Shown here: positions 390-50,447 of the stretch, piece by piece
Numbering within the stretch: position 1 is the first letter of the stretch
Layout: each line of letters starts with the position of its first letter
Assembly: GCA_037481615.1 (NCBI GenBank)
Contig: JBBFLI010000014.1
Reading direction: 5' to 3' (one strand)
Source: Desulfobacterales bacterium
GTDB lineage: Bacteria; Desulfobacterota; Desulfobacteria; Desulfobacterales; SpSt-501
Length of the DNA stretch: 64,000 nt
Made by a program: the position numbers and the translations under genes
Notes under the pieces: generated by a model
The model's database searches: none
Told to the model about the DNA's origin: nothing
The model's input: the letters and a program-made list of their open reading frames with translations, nothing else

Positions 390-997
390 GGAGCGTCTCC
401 TCGGTGAGTGCGGAGTGCGCCGCCGGCGGAGGCGGGGGGCTCCGGATCGACGAGATGGGCTTTGGCGATCGCCTCGAGCGGGAACCCCCGCATCCCGCCG
501 TCCGCCTCGAGGCGGACGGCCCCCTCGGGGGAGAGCCCCGCCAGGGTGCCGCTGAAGGTGCGCCGGCCGTCGAGAGGTCGGCGGAGCTGGATGCGGGCGC
601 GTCGGCCCCGGAATCGTTCGAAGTCCCCGGCCCGGCTCAGACGACGCTGCGGCCCGGGCGAAGAGACCTCGAGCCGGTAAGCGGGCATCCCGGGCAGGGA
701 GACGTCGAGCAGGTCGCCCAGTTCGCGGCTGACGGCGGCGCAATCCTCGAGGGTGACCCCGCCCGGCTTGTCGAGGGTGACGCGCAGCAGGCGTCCTCCG
801 GGGGAGCGCAGGCACTCGACATGGACGAGTTCGAGGCCTTGCGTTTCGCAGAGCGGTTCGGCCACGGCCCACACCTGGCCGGCGAGCGCTTCCCCCCAGG
901 GAAGCGACCTCGTTCCGACCGGCCCTTCGGAGAGGCGAAGGGCCCGGCCGCCCGCGGGCGGTTTGCGGAGCACGGCGTCGCGTTTTCGATCCTTCAT
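383..997 (-). CDS. rimP: Ribosome maturation factor RimP
   Basis: ORF-track 204 aa. Core LELVHVECLRSPGGRLLRVTLDKPGGVTLEDCAAVSRELGDLLD...YRLEVSSPGPQRRL matches the RimP family. Its stop overlaps the nusA start. The true start may be downstream of 997, because a terminator hairpin sits at 1001-1028. Confidence 0.85.
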   Translation of the reverse strand: MKDRKRDAVLRKPPAGGRALRLSEGPVGTRSLPWGEALAGQVWAVAEPLCETQGLELVHVECLRSPGGRLLRVTLDKPGGVTLEDCAAVSRELGDLLDVSLPGMPAYRLEVSSPGPQRRLSRAGDFERFRGRRARIQLRRPLDGRRTFSGTLAGLSPEGAVRLEADGGMRGFPLEAIAKAHLVDPEPPASAGGALRTHRGDAPC

Positions 998-1000
998 GGA

Positions 1001-1028
1001 AATAAAAAACGGGCAAGATGCCCGTTTT
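1001..1028 (-). terminator. Hairpin plus U-tract between tRNA-Gly and rimP (minus-strand orientation)
   Basis: Stem acgggca/tgcccgt (1009-1015 / 1019-1025) with a 3-nt loop. On the minus strand it is followed by TTTTTTATT (complement of 1001-1009). Confidence 0.5.
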
Positions 1029-1155
1029 CTCCCGTCTGGGTGGAACGCCTGCGCTGGATCGGAAAGGTTATCCGGTCATGGAGTCATTGGGGTTCCCTGG
1101 CATCCGCGTCGCACAACGCCCCTACCCAAACCGCTCGAGCAAACGGCGAAAAGGA

Positions 1156-43971: not shown

Positions 43972-44709
43972 TCAGGCGGCGGGGCCGTGCCGGTGGGGGC
44001 GGTCCCCCAGCCGGTGGGCGTGCACGTGCCGGTGGAGCGCCTCCCCGTCGACCCCGCAGATGCGCCCCGCCTCGAGGGTGAGCAGCCGGTCGCACAGCGC
44101 GGTCAGCAGGTCGATGTCGTGGGAGATGATCGCCCGGGGGATGGCGAGCCCCTCGAGCACCTCGACCAGCCGCAGGCGCGTGCGGGAGTCGAGACCGTTT
44201 TCGGGCTCGTCGAGAAGCAGCGCCTCGGGCTCCATCGCGAGCACCGCGGCGAGCGAAACCAGCCGCTTTTCGCCGCCGGAGAGTTTGAAGCCGATCCGGT
44301 CCTCGAAGCCCTCGAGCCCCAGGGCGGCGAGCGTTCGCCGGGCTGCGGCCAGGGCCTCCTGCCGCGATCGGCCGAGGTTGAGGGGGCCGAAGGCGACGTC
44401 TTCGATCACCGTGGGGCAGAAGAGCTGGTCCTCGGGGTCCTGGAAGACGAGCCCGATGCGCCGGCGGACCTCGAGAAAGTCGGCCTCCGCGCGTCGGGGT
44501 TTCCCGAAGACGCGGATCTCGCCCGCCTGGGGCCGCAGCAGCCCCATGATCAGAAGAAAAAGGGTCGTCTTGCCGCTGCCGTTCGGCGCAAGGATCCCGA
44601 CGCGCTCGCCCGGCCCGAGGGCGAAGTCGAGGCCTTCCAGGATCGGCTTCGCGCCCGGGTAGCCGAAGCGGACGCCCTGCAGGGCGATGATCGGCGCGGA
44701 GGCGTCCAT
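43972..44709 (-). CDS. nikO: ECF transporter ATPase (CbiO/NikO)
   Basis: ATG 44709. Walker A APNGSGKTT, signature LSGGEKR, Walker B LLLDEP. Confidence 0.85.
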   Translation of the reverse strand: MDASAPIIALQGVRFGYPGAKPILEGLDFALGPGERVGILAPNGSGKTTLFLLIMGLLRPQAGEIRVFGKPRRAEADFLEVRRRIGLVFQDPEDQLFCPTVIEDVAFGPLNLGRSRQEALAAARRTLAALGLEGFEDRIGFKLSGGEKRLVSLAAVLAMEPEALLLDEPENGLDSRTRLRLVEVLEGLAIPRAIISHDIDLLTALCDRLLTLEAGRICGVDGEALHRHVHAHRLGDRPHRHGPAA

Positions 44710-44726
44710 CGGTTTTTTCGGCCCTT

Positions 44727-45482
44727 TCAGCGCGCGAACTCGAGCGCCGCCGAGGCGGCGACGGCGGCGGCGACGGCGGCGGCGAAGGCGAGCGAGCCCC
44801 TGCCCAGATGGAACTCGTGCAGGCTGAAGAACACCCCCTGGAAGCCGCGGCAGACCATCGCCCGACGGACGCGCTCGGCACGGTCCACGGCGCGCACGAG
44901 GAGCATGCCGAGCAGCCAGGCGAAGGTGCGGTAGGTGTGCAGGTCGGTCCGCGGGCGGAAACCCCGCAGCGCCGCGGCCCGCCGCAGTCTGCGGAATTCC
45001 TGCTCGAGGAGGGCGAGATAACGCCAGGTGAGCAACAAAAGCTGCACGAGTTTTCCCGGGGCCCCCAGCCGGTGAAGGGCGTGTCCCGCGGTCGGCAGGG
45101 AAAGGGGCGCGACGAGCGCGAGCAGCGCGAGCACGAGGGCGTTCGATTTGAGCGTGATCGCAAACGCCAGGAGAACCCCCTCGCGGCTCGCCGCAAGGGG
45201 GCCGAGCCGCAGCAGGGCCTCCCCCGGCAGGCTGAAGGGGAGAAAGATCCACAAGAGCGCGATGAAGCCGTTCACGGCGAAGAGGCGGCGCAGCACCGAC
45301 CCGGCCGAAAGGCGGAAGAAGACCGCCAGCGCCAGCGCAAAGACGAGTGCGGCGGCGATGCTCGCGGGCTTCTGCCAAACGGCGGTTGCGCTGCTGTAGG
45401 CCAGGGCGGCGACCAGACGCACCCGCGGGTCGATTCGCGCCGCGAGCGCTCTCCCCCCGGCGGCGAGGGGTTCGGGGAGCAA
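44727..45482 (-). CDS. nikQ: ECF transporter transmembrane T component (CbiQ/NikQ)
   Basis: 251 aa, multi-TM. ...RRAAALRGF...RAERVRRAMVCRGF is the conserved CbiQ Arg-rich coupling-helix region. Confidence 0.8.
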   Translation of the reverse strand: MLPEPLAAGGRALAARIDPRVRLVAALAYSSATAVWQKPASIAAALVFALALAVFFRLSAGSVLRRLFAVNGFIALLWIFLPFSLPGEALLRLGPLAASREGVLLAFAITLKSNALVLALLALVAPLSLPTAGHALHRLGAPGKLVQLLLLTWRYLALLEQEFRRLRRAAALRGFRPRTDLHTYRTFAWLLGMLLVRAVDRAERVRRAMVCRGFQGVFFSLHEFHLGRGSLAFAAAVAAAVAASAALEFAR

Positions 45483-45501
45483 GGCAGCGGGTCTTTTCGT
45501 T

Positions 45502-45690
45502 TCAGGCGCCGAAGACGATGCGGTGCTCGACCAGGTGCATCCGTTTCAGGGGCGCCTTCACGGTCTTCTGCTGGCCGAAGATGTTGACGAGGAGGAAACT
45601 GCCGTCCTCCTGGGGCTCCACCCGGTCGACCGACTCGAGGAGAAGCTCCTCCCGGCCGTCCCGTTCCACGTAGGCGTGCGCTTCACACAT
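45502..45690 (-). CDS. cooT: CooT-family nickel-binding protein
   Basis: 62 aa. MCEAHAYVERDGREELLLESVDRVEPQEDGSFLLVNIFGQQKTV...HRIVF has the N-terminal Met-Cys-Glu-Ala and beta-rich pattern of CooT. Confidence 0.75.
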   Translation of the reverse strand: MCEAHAYVERDGREELLLESVDRVEPQEDGSFLLVNIFGQQKTVKAPLKRMHLVEHRIVFGA

Positions 45691-46105
45691 CGGGCAGCAC
45701 CTCCTTCACTTTCCGGTGCACGAGCGTCTGGACCAGGTGCGGCAGCGGCTCGGCGGAGACCCCCACCAGGCTGACCGCCTCCTGGGTGAGGGGGAGGAAG
45801 ATCTTGGGGGCGGGGCTCCCCATGATCGCCTCGGCCATCCTCGGGGTGACCTCCCCCAGCATGGCGTGCGCCCAGCCGATCGAAATGGCCCCCACGATCA
45901 CATCCACGCGGGGGGCGGTGCGGACGATCGCGTTTTCGCCGCTTGCGGCGCGGTTCGCCCCGGCCTTGAGCATCTGGGCGGCGGCGATGGCATTGGTGCC
46001 GAGCGCGATCAGCTCGACCGTCTCGCCGTAGGCTTCCTTGAGCGCGCGCAGAACGGCCGCCCCGATCCCCCCGCCTTGGCCGTCGATGACGCAGATGCGT
46101 TTCAA
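45683..46105 (-). CDS. DUF3842-like protein
   Basis: 140 aa. MKRICVIDGQGGGIGAAVLRALKEAYGETVELIALGTNAIAAAQMLKAGANRAASGENAIV... recalled as the DUF3842 family signature (IDGQGGGIG). 8-nt overlap with cooT and ATGA overlap with the upstream gene. Confidence 0.6.
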   Translation of the reverse strand: MKRICVIDGQGGGIGAAVLRALKEAYGETVELIALGTNAIAAAQMLKAGANRAASGENAIVRTAPRVDVIVGAISIGWAHAMLGEVTPRMAEAIMGSPAPKIFLPLTQEAVSLVGVSAEPLPHLVQTLVHRKVKEVLPDV

Positions 46106-46692
46106 GCCGGTCCGCCCCCCCGACGCCTGCTCTTGAGCCAGACGGCGAAGCCCGCCAGGCCCACGATCCAGCCCAAGCCCCCCACGACATCGCTCAGCCG
46201 CGCGCGCGGCGCGTGAAGCTCGGCCATCATTTTCACCACGGGGGCGAGCTTCCTGTCCAGCGCTTTTTCGAGGGCCTGCTCGAGCTCGGCGGGGGAGAGG
46301 GAGGCCGCGGCCGCCGCCGGCCCCGAGGCGGGGGCGGGCGAGGGGGCGGCAGCCGCCGGCCCGCCGCCCAGCTCCGCGGCCGAAAGGGGCCAGTCCGCGC
46401 GGTGGCCCATGCCGGCCTCGAGCACGATCGTGAGATCCTCCCGGAGAGGGATCGGGAAGGAAAACTCGCCCCGGTCGTTCGTCTTGCCCTGGAGCAACTC
46501 GCGGCCGGAGCGGTCCAGCACCCGGATCAGACCCTCTTTCACGAGGGTCCCGTCGGGGTACTTGGCCTCGGTGTGGACGGTTTCCCCCTCGACCCAGGCA
46601 AAGAGGTTCACCCGGTGGGCGGAGGCGTCTCCGGGCGGAAGGAGGGGGACGAGAGAGAGGGTCAGGGTGAAGAGAAGCGTTGCGGTGTTCAT
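46102..46692 (-). CDS. nikL: NikL-like accessory component (signal anchor, periplasmic beta-domain, C-terminal TM)
   Basis: ATG 46692 (ATGA overlap with the nikM stop). MNTATLLFTLTLSLVPLL...AHRVNLFAWVEGETVH...DRGEFSFPIP..., Ala/Pro linker, terminal TM GLGWIVGLAGFAVWL. Confidence 0.5.
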   Translation of the reverse strand: MNTATLLFTLTLSLVPLLPPGDASAHRVNLFAWVEGETVHTEAKYPDGTLVKEGLIRVLDRSGRELLQGKTNDRGEFSFPIPLREDLTIVLEAGMGHRADWPLSAAELGGGPAAAAPSPAPASGPAAAAASLSPAELEQALEKALDRKLAPVVKMMAELHAPRARLSDVVGGLGWIVGLAGFAVWLKSRRRGGGPA

Positions 46693-47306
46693 CGCACCTC
46701 CACGGGCGGGCGGCCGGGAAGCAGCCCGGGCTGGACCCGGCGCAGGAACCCCACGCACAGGGCCGTCACGACCCCCTCGATCCCCATCACCGGCAGGTGG
46801 GCGAGGACCACGGCGAAAGCCACGTTCAAAAAATGCTCCCCGCTCAAGGCGAGCGCAAGCCCCACGACGACCCCGCCGAGCAGCACGGAAAGAAAGCCGC
46901 AGGCGAAGGCGGCGGCGAGCGCGGCCGCCTTCGGTCCCTGCAGGAAGCGGGAAAAGAGGCCGTAGCCGGTCACCGCCGGCAGGGCCATGATCAGCGTGTT
47001 CACCCCCAGGGTGGTCAGCCCCCCGAACTGGAAGAAGACCGCCTGCAGGACGAGCCCCACGAGGATCGCGGGGAAGGCCGTCCAGCCGAGGAGCAGACCG
47101 ACCAGGCCGTTCAGGACGAGATGAACGCTCGTCGGCCCGAGCGGCACGTGGACGAGCGAGGCGACGAAGAAGGCCCCGGCGAGCATGGCCGCCCGGGGGA
47201 TCTGCTCGGGCTCGAGTTTCTTCAGGCCGATGCCTGTGCCGGCGGCCGCGAGTGCGGCCCCGGCGAGCAGGACGGGGCCGGAGAGCACCCCTTCGGAGAT
47301 GTGCAT
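46689..47306 (-). CDS. nikM: ECF transporter substrate-capture component CbiM/NikM
   Basis: 205 aa beginning MHISEGVLS (the N-terminal Met-His required for metal ligation in the CbiM/NikM family). Multi-TM. Confidence 0.85.
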   Translation of the reverse strand: MHISEGVLSGPVLLAGAALAAAGTGIGLKKLEPEQIPRAAMLAGAFFVASLVHVPLGPTSVHLVLNGLVGLLLGWTAFPAILVGLVLQAVFFQFGGLTTLGVNTLIMALPAVTGYGLFSRFLQGPKAAALAAAFACGFLSVLLGGVVVGLALALSGEHFLNVAFAVVLAHLPVMGIEGVVTALCVGFLRRVQPGLLPGRPPVEVR

Positions 47307-47348
47307 GAGGCGGATCCTATCCGATTCCGGGTCAAAGCGAAAGCCGCC

Positions 47349-48713
47349 CTAAAAGCCGAACTCCGCCCGGACGGTCGTGGCGAAGACGGGGTCGTTCTCG
47401 GAGTCGCCGCCGGGGTTCCAGACATACTGGAAGTCGGGCGTGAAGGCCAGATTTTCGCCGACCGCGATCCGGTAGTAGACCTCGAGATGCACCTCGGGAT
47501 CGTCCTTGCGGTAGCGTCCGTCCGGGAAGAGCGCGGCCAGGCCCAGGCCGATCTCGTCCTCGTCCCGCCGGGGGAGGAGCCCCTTCAGGTTCACCCCGCC
47601 GGAGATCTCCTGCTTCACCACGTAGACCTCCTCGTTGTTCCAGCCGAGGCGGCCGAAGAGCCCGATCGTCTCGGTCAGCTGCTGGTCGGCCGAGATCCCC
47701 AGCCCCCAGCCCGCGGCCTTGCGACCGGCGATGAAGTTGCGCTCGGCATCGAGCTTCGCATGATCGTAGCCCGCCCGCCAGGCGTAGAAGCGGTAATTGC
47801 CCCCGCGCCCGCCGAAGTGGGGCGAGAAGGAGACCTGCCCCCCGAGAAAGGGCGTGCTGAAGACGTTGTCGTACTTGCTCTTCGCCGTCTCCTCGAGCGG
47901 GCTTCCCCCCACCAGCGGCCGCGAGCTCGAGGCCCCCACCAGGTGGAAGGCGAGAGATTCCCCGGGCTGAACCCTCACCCCGAAGAGCGGGGTGTACTCG
48001 TTCTCGCCGTCGAGCACGGAGTTGTTGACGAAAGGCTTGCCGATGAACTGCTTGCCCTCGTCGTTCGCATAGGCGTTGTCGTCCAGAAAGGAAAGGGGCT
48101 CGCCCTTGCCGGCGGTGAGCGAAAGGCGCTCGTTCCAAAAATGGTGCGTGTAGTGCGCCTCGAGCAGCGCAAGCGCCGTCTCGTCCCCGCCGTCGGTGTT
48201 GTCGTCGGCGATCGTGTTGAGATTGGCGAGCAGCACCTCGGCCGGCTTCACCCGGCCGCCGCCCGTCCGGTCCGCCCCGCTTCCCGCCCCGGCGTGAATG
48301 CGCAGGAAAAACTCCCCCTCCTCCAAAACCGGCACGGCGGGCGTCCAGGACAGCTCGAGATCCGCCGCAAACCCCGCCCCGCTCGGGCTGTCCGCCCGCA
48401 GGCCGTCCAGCTCGTCGGCGCCTCCGTCCTGGTAATACAGCACCGCCCCCCCGTGAATGGAAAGTGTGCCGAAGCGCTCCTCGAGCGCCTCGCCGATCTT
48501 GTCCTCGAGCGCCTTCTCGTTTTTCAGCTCCCGGCGTTTGGCGAGCTGCTCCTGCTCCTCGAGCTTTTGCTCGAGCTCCGCGATCCGCTCTTTCAGCGCC
48601 TGGATCTCCTTGAGCACGGCCGCGTTGTCGGCAAGCGCGCGGCCGCCCGGAACGGCCCCGATCAGCAACAACGCCAGCCCGAGCCCCAGCCACCGTTTCC
48701 TGTCGCACCTCAT
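47349..48713 (-). CDS. Outer-membrane beta-barrel porin with N-terminal coiled coil (OprB/DUF3373-like)
   Basis: ATG 48713 (MRCDRKRWLGLGLALLLIGAVPGGRALA). Coiled coil LKEIQALKERIAELEQKLEEQEQLAKRRELK. Alternating beta-strand pattern. C-terminal ...TVRAEFGF (terminal Phe). Confidence 0.7.
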   Translation of the reverse strand: MRCDRKRWLGLGLALLLIGAVPGGRALADNAAVLKEIQALKERIAELEQKLEEQEQLAKRRELKNEKALEDKIGEALEERFGTLSIHGGAVLYYQDGGADELDGLRADSPSGAGFAADLELSWTPAVPVLEEGEFFLRIHAGAGSGADRTGGGRVKPAEVLLANLNTIADDNTDGGDETALALLEAHYTHHFWNERLSLTAGKGEPLSFLDDNAYANDEGKQFIGKPFVNNSVLDGENEYTPLFGVRVQPGESLAFHLVGASSSRPLVGGSPLEETAKSKYDNVFSTPFLGGQVSFSPHFGGRGGNYRFYAWRAGYDHAKLDAERNFIAGRKAAGWGLGISADQQLTETIGLFGRLGWNNEEVYVVKQEISGGVNLKGLLPRRDEDEIGLGLAALFPDGRYRKDDPEVHLEVYYRIAVGENLAFTPDFQYVWNPGGDSENDPVFATTVRAEFGF

Positions 48714-48772: not shown

Positions 48773-49543
48773 TCATTTTTCTTTCCAGTCGTGGAAATAG
48801 ACCCAAATCACGCCGCCGATCTCGACCGCCTTGTCCTTGCCGTCCTTTTTCAGCTTGAAATCGGCCGGCGCCAGGGCGGCGAACCCCCACCAGCCCGGCC
48901 GGGGCGCGGCATAGGTGAAGACGCCGTTGCGGTCGGCCTTGACGACCTGGGTGACCTGGTACTCGGTCGGCGGCTCGGCCTTACCCTCGCGGTTGTAGAA
49001 CTCGATTTCGACCTCGGCGAAGGGCGCGGGCTTGCCGTTCTGCTTCACGATCCCCTGGAAGACGTTTCCGGCGTAGAGGCCGAAGGGCCGCGTGAGGGGG
49101 ACGATCTCGATCGGGTGGCCGACCTCGCGGTCCCAGCCCTCCTCCTCGCCGAAGGCCGGGACGACGACCTTGGTGTAGTGCGCGATGAAGGAATCCTCGG
49201 CCGGCTCCCAGTAGGGCTCGGGCTCGAAGTGGAAGATGTAGACCCCGGGGCGCTTAAACGTGTAAGAGGCGCTCCAGGCCGCCTTGCCCATGACCTGCGC
49301 CGGCTTGAGGCCGGCGGAGAGATCCTCCTTCGCCGTGCCGGCGAGCACCCCGAAGACTTTCGGCTTCGCCATGTCCATCCCCACCATTTCCATGGGGTGC
49401 GAGAAGGAGAGCAGGAGTTCGATCGCCTTGGGGTCGGTCTTCGAAATCACGGGCTTGGCGGGGATGAGCATCCCGAAATGGGCCCAGGCGGGCGCGCCGG
49501 AGATCAGGAGCGCAAGACCCAGGGAAACGACACGTTTTTTCAT
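48773..49543 (-). CDS. nikK: Periplasmic DUF4198/NikK-like metal-binding protein
   Basis: ATG 49543 after [35 protein letters not shown]... (signal peptide then the His-Phe-Gly start of the mature protein). Ig-like beta-sandwich region [19 protein letters not shown]...ADRNGVFTY. Confidence 0.7.
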
Positions 49544-49572
49544 GTGCGGCCTCCTTGTCTTCTGCCGTGGCG

Positions 49573-49611
49573 AAAAAAAAAGGCCGCGCGTCCGCGGCGC
49601 CTTCGGGCGCC
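49573..49611 (-). terminator. Leader terminator with overlapping alternative hairpin upstream of nikK
   Basis: Minus strand: GGCGCC-CGAA-GGCGCC (49611-49596) shares GCC with the terminator stem GCCGCG-GACG-CGCGGC (49598-49583). That stem is followed by C + U9 (49581-49573), then 16 nt to the SD. Confidence 0.5.
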
Positions 49612-49692
49612 CCTTTCGCACGGCCTCGACACGGCCAGCAAAAAGCAGCTGAGATTGGGGGAATTGCGGGCTCCGGCCCGCTTTGACGGGCT

Positions 49693-49721
49693 TTGTTAAT
49701 CCAAGGGATCCGGCCTGTCAA
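49693..49721 (-). promoter_or_regulatory. Candidate sigma70 promoter of the nik operon
   Basis: Minus strand TTGACA (49721-49716), 17-nt spacer, TAACAA (49698-49693). Predicted leader of about 140 nt. Confidence 0.5.
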
Positions 49722-49775
49722 GCGGTGGGCCAGGCCTCCTTGACTTGGTTCGGGAAAGTCTCTAAGGAAACCGGG

Positions 49776-50447
49776 ATGGCGCGATCCTCCGGAGAAAGCG
49801 GGAAAAAGCCTTTTTTGTCGCTTAGCCGGGCGGCGGTCTTCTCCTGGGCCGCGGGCCTTTTTCTGGTCTCGGCCTGGATGTTCGTCCTGGGGGTGATGGT
49901 CGGCCGCGGCACGGTGCCGATCGAGTTCGACGTCGAGCGTCTCAAACGCGCCGTCGCGGCCGCCGCGCGGGGGGCGGCCGCGGAAAAACCGCCGCCCCCC
50001 GCGCGGGCGGAGATGAAGAGCAAGGCCGATCTCGGCTTCTATGACCAGCTGCCGCGGGGACCGGAGGAGAAACCCGCCCTCCCGCGGCCCGCGCCGCCCG
50101 AAAAACCCCGCGCGCCCGAGCCCGGGGCGGGGGAGGTGCCGCGGGCGGCCGAGACGGAAAAGAAGCCGCCCCCGCCGCCCCCTTCGCCCGCCATGCAGCC
50201 CCCGGCGGGGGCGGGGCGCACCTTCACCGTCCAGGTGGCGGCCGTGCGCTCCGAAGAGGAGGCGCGGGGCCTTGCGGCAAGGCTCAGGCAGCGGGGGTAC
50301 GCCGCCTACGTCGAACCCGTGCCCTCGGCCGCGGGGGAAAAAATCTTCCGCGTGCGCATGGGCGAGTACCCCACGCGCGATTTCGCCCGCAGCCTCGTCG
50401 AGCGGCTGCGCCGGGACGGTTTTTCCGCCGAGGCGGTCGCGAAATAA
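49776..50447 (+). CDS. SPOR-domain protein (membrane-anchored, Pro-rich linker)
   Basis: ATG 49776 after AAGGA. One TM helix, Pro/Ala/Glu linker, and C-terminal FTVQVAAVRSEEEARGLAARLRQRGYAAYV...FRVRMGEYPTRDFA SPOR fold. Confidence 0.8.
   Translation: MARSSGESGKKPFLSLSRAAVFSWAAGLFLVSAWMFVLGVMVGRGTVPIEFDVERLKRAVAAAARGAAAEKPPPPARAEMKSKADLGFYDQLPRGPEEKPALPRPAPPEKPRAPEPGAGEVPRAAETEKKPPPPPPSPAMQPPAGAGRTFTVQVAAVRSEEEARGLAARLRQRGYAAYVEPVPSAAGEKIFRVRMGEYPTRDFARSLVERLRRDGFSAEAVAK

Follow-up and report, generated by a model that had tools for sequence, protein, structure and literature searches.

A conserved leader RNA ahead of nickel-uptake genes in Desulfobacterales and other anaerobes, probably an RNA-level switch for nickel import

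How is nickel import regulated where NikR is missing? Desulfobacterales and allied anaerobes have a heavy need for nickel in their hydrogenases and in carbon monoxide dehydrogenase/acetyl-CoA synthase (ACS), and the regulators generally credited with controlling nickel import are protein repressors (NikR, Nur and others). The sole Ni/Co-sensing RNA known to us controls export. The question is raised by a 64-kb stretch of DNA from a Desulfobacterales bacterium (assembly GCA_037481615.1, contig JBBFLI010000014.1; the whole stretch is called the window throughout), whose minus strand carries a nik operon preceded by a leader with a predicted intrinsic terminator in front of the first gene, nikK.

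NikK/NikL-type energy-coupling factor (ECF) systems have been assigned to nickel, and in Desulfovibrio and Geobacter NikR was given as the regulator of such operons (Rodionov et al. 2004, PMC545781; Zhang et al. 2009, PMC2667541). NikR was rejected as regulator of the window's operon because it is absent from the genome: no NikR_C domain was found in this 98% complete assembly. In a panel of 60 genomes, NikR is absent from 58 and present in two. An earlier interpretation of the same DNA, made from its letters alone (the sequence-only reading), had proposed that the leader is a new attenuator or riboswitch of a nickel importer, working through competing hairpins. Our analysis upholds a conserved and apparently undescribed RNA that heads importers without NikR, and abandons the hairpin competition. 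The leader family is probably an RNA-level switch for nickel import.

A conserved leader RNA family upstream of nickel-uptake genes

Orthologues of NikK were found in 31 of 41 relatives, and their upstream regions were compared. From a plain MAFFT alignment of 26 nikK leaders, RNAalifold recovers the three helices H1, P1 and P2, and 13 of their 19 pairs show compensatory changes. Among 69 distinct copies, 96.6% of cells are paired and double changes occur in 16 of the 19 pairs. The covariation score is 0.62, compared with 0.24 for shuffled alignments (none of 500 shuffles reaches the observed value) and 0.09-0.14 for slid partners; a structure-blind MAFFT alignment gives the same picture. Covariation, which the sequence-only reading had proposed to look for in nikK/nikM relatives, is thus present family-wide.

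The upstream regions share one order of elements: a TTGACA promoter, H1 with NGAA loop and freely covarying stem, an A/C-rich linker of 30-60 nt without conserved sequence, the near-invariant RCCACGAAGG, P2 with (A)NGAA loop, 3-8 variable nt, CGUGGY and a U-run. The motif is 100-118 nt long, typically about 105 nt. P1 is paired in 98% of cells and is conserved chiefly as sequence (C-C/G-G is invariant), while H1 and P2 are free to vary; the core CCACGAAGG is near-invariant. TTGAC is located 46-54 nt upstream of the GAA of the H1 loop in about 90 of 118 copies (47 nt in the window), with TAnnnT/A hexamers at equal spacing across the family. A start of transcription immediately ahead of H1, as the sequence-only reading had assumed for the window, agrees with this fixed distance.

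When the window's own clade was left out of the covariance model (R2), the search still gave exactly one match in the whole window, which is the leader (E 1.4e-4; Table 1). Terminator-like matches as such are not rare in this GC-rich DNA, where six were found and 3.1 expected; the case for the element therefore rests on conservation and not on the hairpin alone. Comparison of the copies supports the view that the leader is a conserved regulatory RNA and not a stray terminator. One nikK leader (L038, G018:C56) carries an insertion of about 150 nt in its linker, between H1 and the terminator module, that resembles a miniature inverted-repeat transposable element, with terminal inverted repeats GACGACTTTGTAAAAA ... 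TTTTTTACAAAGTCGTC; it is otherwise typical.

The covariance model R1 matches 218 of 301 sampled Desulfobacterales genomes, representing 122 of 155 genera, often with two to six copies per genome. Over all genomes with the motif, copy numbers range from one to eight. Firmicutes, Syntrophales and other genomes that were searched hold up to eight copies each. The window's genome has a single copy, heading the sole NikK-type importer found in that genome. Scanning one genome per prokaryote species with an exact pattern gave at least 120 loci, mostly in metagenome-assembled genomes of Desulfobacterales/Desulfobacteraceae. Among the pattern matches listed are Desulfatiglandales, Desulfarculia, Syntrophales, Desulfobulbaceae, Clostridia and Thermoanaerobacterales, as well as a genus-mate of the window's genome labelled Desulfatibacillum. 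Most pattern matches were confirmed by covariance model, and Desulforapulum autotrophicum has a family copy (L154). Matches in Ca. Angelobacter and Holophagaceae look like chance and were set aside. Neither a Thermoflexus match (L170) nor a Peptococcaceae copy upstream of DUF3842 (L102) passed the model; the former may be a diverged variant, and the latter looks real.

Nearly all copies are situated ahead of Ni/Co uptake genes, including those for NikA-like binding proteins and DUF3842-CooT, and the element is always in cis, in one orientation and immediately upstream of these genes. For 108 copies the first downstream open reading frame on the same strand was classified. It encodes DUF4198/NikK in 48 cases, CbiM in 16 (four fused to PDGLE), FmdE in eight and TonB-dependent receptors in four. 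FecCD, DUF3842, TrmO_N, Flavin_Reduct and NikD/E-like ATPases follow with two each, and porins, ZnuA, SBP_5, Peripla_BP_2, an ECF S-component and a methyltransferase occur as well. Further motif-led genes code for ExbB-like proteins and more TonB-dependent receptors, one of them in a genus-mate. Judged by these protein families, the motif-led genes are a predicted metal-acquisition regulon.

Some motif-led genes are less familiar in this context. In an uncultured Desulfonema sp. (L180), the gene that comes right after a motif copy encodes a protein of 87 aa composed mostly of His, Glu and Lys (MCGKHGHKHSHLHGHSHKHPHGH...), which may serve to store or buffer nickel. Three genomes (L090, L093 and L097 in G186, G309 and G141) have tandem motif copies, the first before a gene resembling S-adenosylmethionine-dependent methyltransferases and the second before an APC-family amino-acid permease. 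Elsewhere, the motif leads TrmO_N-like and Flavin_Reduct genes. The methyltransferase/permease, TrmO_N-like and Flavin_Reduct genes may be metallophore-related members of the nickel regulon.

The leader family appears to be undescribed. The covariance-model scans suggested by the sequence-only reading were run against Rfam 15 and matched no known family, with the window at gathering threshold, the leader at E up to 10 and ten diverse copies at E up to 0.1; neither the NiCo riboswitch model (RF02683) nor the cobalamin riboswitch (RF00174 and variants) gave a match in these scans. Low-score matches were chance hits of small RNAs (sRNAs) on the terminator only, and a sub-threshold TwoAYGGAY (RF01731) in a Clostridia contig (L144:139-293, minus strand; 40.4 bits, gathering threshold 43) that has nothing to do with the leader. 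Full-text literature searches, a 50-genome survey of non-coding RNAs and a 2024 metallostasis review yielded no account of the motif, which is absence of evidence only, most subscription journals being outside this coverage.

Terminator, alternative hairpin and proposed mechanism

The minimum-free-energy fold of the window's leader is a single nested structure, in which P1 (GGCCGUGCG/CGCGCGGCC) encloses P2 and an internal loop AAAGG/GCGGA separates the two. It has the predicted form of an intrinsic terminator, with P1 of 9 bp, P2 of 6 bp and U9 (-35.7 kcal/mol). The sequence-only reading had instead taken GGCGCC-CGAA-GGCGCC, our P2, for an anti-terminator that shares three nt with a terminator stem GCCGCG-GACG-CGCGGC. 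Both stems can indeed be drawn, and GCC is common to both. However, the nested fold reaches -33 to -35.7 kcal/mol, as against -12.6 and -12.8 kcal/mol for these two stems on their own, and is thus better by about 20 kcal/mol; P1 has a pair probability of 0.9997 in the terminated transcript. The three closest relatives keep P1 (a U-G pair becoming U-A) and break the GC-only stem, and P2 covaries as inner hairpin. The GGCGCC hairpin therefore belongs to the terminator and is not its competitor, and we regard the competition as very improbable. The hairpins named in the sequence-only reading (GCGGGC-CGGA-GCCCGC, CAGC/GCUG, GGCC/GGCC, GGCGCC-CGAA-GGCGCC and the GC-only stem) are all present as sequences, though the family comparison gives no support to CAGC/GCUG and GGCC/GGCC, which fall in the unconserved linker.

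A strong terminator is predicted for each copy (-16 to -38 kcal/mol). Its fold does not account for all of the conservation. The 3' partner of GAAGG varies, with AA bulged in the window's genus and full pairing with YCUUC in Firmicutes and other clades, and the terminator fold therefore fails to explain the invariance of the core. The core can also fold on itself as R-CC[ACGAA]GG-Y, a hairpin of 3 bp that excludes P1; we call it Hx. Like H1 and P2, Hx carries a loop of the (A)NGAA type. The bases on either side of CC[ACGAA]GG can pair in 169 of 183 distinct copies (G-C 78, A-U 50, G-U 38, U-A 3), and A-C is found in just four. This asymmetry between G-U and A-C argues for real pairing in Hx, as far as sequence comparison can tell. 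A conserved Hx that would compete with the terminator suggests factor-dependent antitermination.

Other ways of opening the terminator, and other functions of the core, were considered. An antiterminator made of RNA only was not found in the linkers: family-wide, 1.48 of 12 core nt pair upstream, compared with 1.91 when linkers are shuffled. In the window, CUUUUUGCUGGCC of the linker can pair with GGCCGUGCGAAAGG, a pairing that is lost in the nearest relatives and was rejected. A leader peptide was dismissed as well; GAAGG and an AUG in the P2 loop resemble a Shine-Dalgarno (SD) sequence and start codon in some clades, and the AUG is not conserved. GGA loops of the CsrA type were rejected as not conserved.

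We infer a mechanism of the following kind. Transcription would start a few nt before H1. About 100 nt further on, P1 enclosing P2 would form, together with the U-run, a strong terminator just ahead of the nikK ribosome-binding site, and the default outcome would therefore be a short terminated transcript. When nickel is short, a trans-acting reader would recognise the GAA-loop hairpins and hold Hx, and polymerase would enter nikK. When nickel is sufficient, the reader would release and the terminator would form. We favour such a reader because a default terminator overlapped by a weak alternative hairpin, with three look-alike loops besides, is how leaders under factor-dependent antitermination are classically built. 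A protein seems to us a likelier reader than a small ligand. Our reading is that a conserved cis-acting attenuator, of which the window's leader is one copy, gates nickel-uptake genes through a reader-held Hx; we put it forward tentatively, as a nearly balanced proposition.

Candidate readers and rival explanations

Inside the nik operon of the window, on its minus strand, genes for DUF3842 and for a CooT-family Ni-binding protein (N-terminal MCE) overlap by 8 nt (Table 1). Their occurrence was followed in the 60-genome panel. Five weak copies, each beside cbiM or nikK, that came up only under lax filters were counted among the motif carriers. CooT is present in 44 of 45 carriers and in 3 of 15 non-carriers; the figures for DUF3842 are 41 of 45 and 3 of 15. 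All 12 carriers outside the panel have CooT. Twelve genomes have neither motif nor CooT, and of these nine have CbiM and four have ACS. The overlapping pair is kept in other lineages, directly behind the motif in many of them and directly upstream or divergent in others. DUF3842 and CooT, which co-occur with the motif and are often under common control with it, are the obvious candidates for the reader.

A repeated arrangement was noticed directly upstream of DUF3842 in one contig (L231, G068:C56, about 800-1060, reverse strand), where CACACGAA-CCGCC-UGAA-GGCGG-UACUACAAACUUUUU occurs three times in tandem. Each repeat is a mini-unit of the motif, made of ACGAA, a hairpin with UGAA loop and a U-run.

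Several points weigh against the attenuator with a protein reader as we propose it. DUF3842 is modelled poorly from its single sequence (predicted local distance difference test score, pLDDT, 45) and better from an alignment (pLDDT 78); its predicted fold is generic and flavodoxin/Rossmann-like, and Foldseek gave weak matches in PDB, none of them significant (best E 4.7e-3, template-modelling score at most 0.5), and no solved relative was found by sequence. CooT matches PDB entry 6fan and presumably has an Sm-like fold. By residue count DUF3842 is near-neutral and CooT acidic, which is atypical of RNA binders. Hx has only three pairs, and genome GC content could account for part of the covariation at its flanks. 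The window's own copy is divergent (H1 loop CGGA, core GCGAAAGG), with no obvious equivalent of Hx.

Because of the points against DUF3842 and CooT, direct sensing of metal or ligand by the RNA stays a serious rival, one that we hold possible and somewhat doubtful. In a true riboswitch, a pocket of GAA-loop hairpins and ACGAAGG core would bind Ni(II)/Co(II) or a nickel complex and stabilise the terminator (OFF); in the ligand-free state, the terminator would be leaky or outcompeted co-transcriptionally. Conservation over several phyla, multiple copies ahead of functionally linked genes and tandem copies in one operon are the usual signature of riboswitches, and the His-rich protein and the NikK, NikM and NikA-like genes of the regulon point to nickel. 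There is no universal protein partner, as one carrier (G064) has no CooT. Precedents exist: in guanidine-II a variable linker joins two small hairpins whose tetraloops are conserved, and the aptamer of the HMP-PP (hydroxymethylpyrimidine pyrophosphate) riboswitch is embedded in a terminator. On the other hand, predictions make the terminator very stable even with no ligand bound, the linker offers no RNA-only antiterminator to account for ligand-free read-through, a small-molecule pocket would not usually have three look-alike loops, and no likeness to NiCo or another Rfam aptamer was detected.

The element might also be no conditional switch at all, acting either as a constitutive partial terminator that damps nik or as the source of an sRNA of about 105 nt with targets elsewhere, nikK being expressed by basal read-through. 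A discrete small RNA is what one would expect from a strong default terminator, a conserved promoter and a defined 3' end, and an A/C-rich unstructured linker followed by a terminator with U-tail resembles the architecture of Hfq-type sRNAs (an unstructured region, then a terminator with U-tail). Yet the single-stranded linker, where an sRNA would have its seed, is not the conserved part; the hairpin loops and the 5' strand of P1 are. The constant cis position and orientation upstream of Ni-uptake genes, with up to eight copies per genome, likewise speak against a non-switch, and a damping terminator would need neither the invariant core nor a conserved competing hairpin. We therefore consider this explanation unlikely.

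The locus, known systems and nickel regulation

The sequence features of the window's leader were checked letter by letter on the minus strand (Table 1). The promoter and leader of about 140 nt given by the sequence-only reading agree with our count (TTGACA, 17 nt, TAACAA; predicted leader about 142 nt), and C + U9 does precede AAGGAGG by 16 nt. A strict promoter scan did not call TAACAA, which has A at position 6. The ATG of nikK is at 49543, with 29 nt between U-run and start. No minus-strand gene ends upstream, as had been said; the neighbour is a divergent plus-strand SPOR-domain gene, and the 232-bp gap between it and nikK is consequently a divergent promoter region. Directly 3' of the leader, on the same strand, the Ni/Co uptake genes run from nikK to nikM, nikL, nikQ and nikO.

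Table 1. Features of the nik leader and its surroundings in the 64-kb window
Feature	Position	Strand	Evidence or remark
-35 hexamer TTGACA	49716..49721	-	read from sequence
-10-like hexamer TAACAA, spacer 17 nt from -35	49693..49698	-	read from sequence
Predicted leader, about 142 nt	49685..49544	-	
Whole leader motif (U-run runs on to 49573)	49575..49685	-	covariance models; R1 64.5 bits, R2 34.6 bits
H1, 5' hairpin GCGGGC-CGGA-GCCCGC, about 4 nt past predicted transcription start	49666..49681	-	6/6 pairs with compensatory changes, 69 distinct copies
Variable linker, holds CAGC/GCUG and GGCC/GGCC hairpins	49626..49665	-	unconserved beyond four closest relatives
CAGC..GCUG, weak linker hairpin	49636..49651	-	read from sequence
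GGCC..GGCC, weak linker hairpin	49622..49636	-	read from sequence
P1 5' strand GGCCGUGCG (family consensus RCCACG)	49617..49625	-	pairs with 49582..49590
AAAGG, window's form of invariant GAAGG core, internal loop of terminator	49612..49616	-	alignments
P2, inner hairpin GGCGCC-CGAA-GGCGCC, NGAA loop	49596..49611	-	nested in P1; 6/6 pairs covary family-wide
GC-only stem GCCGCG-GACG-CGCGGC	49583..49598	-	read from sequence
P1 3' strand CGCGCGGCC	49582..49590	-	fold and alignments
U9 tract, intrinsic terminator (C precedes U9)	49573..49581	-	read from sequence and terminator scan
Shine-Dalgarno AAGGAGG of nikK, 16 nt spacer from U-run	49550..49556	-	read from sequence
nikK, DUF4198 periplasmic component, signal peptide, mature N-terminus HFGM	48773..49543	-	Pfam DUF4198, E 1.2e-58
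Remaining operon: OprB-type porin, nikM (CbiM), nikL-like, DUF3842, CooT, nikQ (CbiQ), nikO (ABC ATPase)	43972..48713	-	Pfam
OprB-family porin gene between nikK and nikM	47349..48713	-	
DUF3842 gene	46105..45683	-	
CooT-family gene	45690..45502	-	
SPOR-domain gene, upstream neighbour	49776..50447	+	

The window's copy is a divergent variant, common to three close relatives, in which P1 is lengthened to 9 bp. In place of the RCCACGAAGG core it has GGCCGUGCGAAAGG, a clade-specific form with two extra bases that keeps P1; its own clade has GCGAA(A/C)(G/U)G. P2 has the loop CGAA, which agrees with (A)NGAA; H1 is capped by CGGA, as in two other copies (L030, L052), and by CGAA in the three closest relatives. 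In five genus relatives (L028, L029, L032, L035, L036), the U-run, or a second U-run just 3' of it, can pair with a downstream A-run in a UUCG-capped hairpin (e.g. UUUUUUGAC-UUCG-GUCAAAAAA) between U-run and SD; the window's U9 has an alternative partner in the purine-rich SD region. Both pairings are clade-specific and were set aside.

In the window an OprB-family porin gene is inserted between nikK and nikM, and porin-like genes are found behind the motif at other loci (L073, L095, L100, L114, L220). These genes suggest a dedicated outer-membrane passage for nickel. NikK orthologues have a signal peptide ending in A-x-A followed by invariant HFGM/HYGM (window 49480..49543, minus strand), and mature NikK would thus begin with His. 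The N-terminus of CbiM/NikM is similarly MHISEG, and metal binding by these N-terminal residues is possible. On the plus strand, CTTGACTTGGTTCGGGAAAGTCTCTAAGG upstream of the SPOR-domain gene (about 49745..49775) is kept across the genus and is probably the promoter and 5' untranslated region of that gene.

Among known systems, the NiCo riboswitch (czcD, RF02683) is likewise a cis-acting leader RNA tied to Ni/Co homeostasis. It forms a four-helix junction and turns on exporters, whereas the leader family has three GAA-loop hairpins with a terminator and would control importers. Control of nikKMLQO and nikMNQO by NikR is alike in target genes and in presumed logic, Ni import being off when nickel is sufficient. 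NikR, however, is a DNA-binding repressor with operator GTGTTAC-N13/14-GTAACAC, and the control proposed here would sit in the transcribed leader.

The ANTAR (EutV/NasR/AmiR), BglG/LicT ribonucleic antiterminator and HutP systems resemble the leader family in three respects: termination is the default, the 5' strand of the terminator is overlapped by a weak alternative hairpin, and look-alike loops are repeated as recognition sites. The loops of the family, (A)NGAA, are 4-5 nt long and have their G second or third, which does not fit the ANTAR hexaloop (A1/G4); with ANTAR targets only the principle of overlap is shared. The family has three hairpins with a linker of 30-60 nt, and no known RNA-binding protein family was identified (the genome was not searched for an ANTAR protein). 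Guanidine-II (mini-ykkC, RF01068) and HMP-PP (thiS) aptamers are very small, too. The family loop is NGAA and not ACGR as in guanidine-II, GAA loops cannot kiss by Watson-Crick pairs, and the gene context is unrelated. An analogy with the iron-responsive element and iron regulatory protein (IRP; apo-aconitase) is possible and speculative: an apo form of a metal-handling protein would act on mRNA loops for uptake of that metal. The iron-responsive element is eukaryotic, acts on translation and stability, and has no sequence or structural relation to the leader family.

At the level of the family, a hitherto undescribed RNA-level control of nickel import is well supported. A conserved terminator leader before nickel importers, outer-membrane receptors and DUF3842-CooT would explain nickel regulation without NikR. 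It would also define a nickel regulon for annotation, with FmdE-like and TrmO_N-like proteins, the methyltransferase and permease pair and the His-rich protein as members, and it holds out the prospect of a small RNA that responds to metal or of a family of RNA-binding proteins, new in either case. It seems rather likely to us that the family would be the first known RNA-level sensor of nickel import, either a minimal riboswitch class whose two or three GAA-loop hairpins, one of them concealed in the terminator, bind Ni(II) or a nickel complex, or an IRP-like system in which nickel-free DUF3842 and/or CooT binds the loops and opens the terminator, and that it would replace NikR in Desulfobacterales and other anaerobes.

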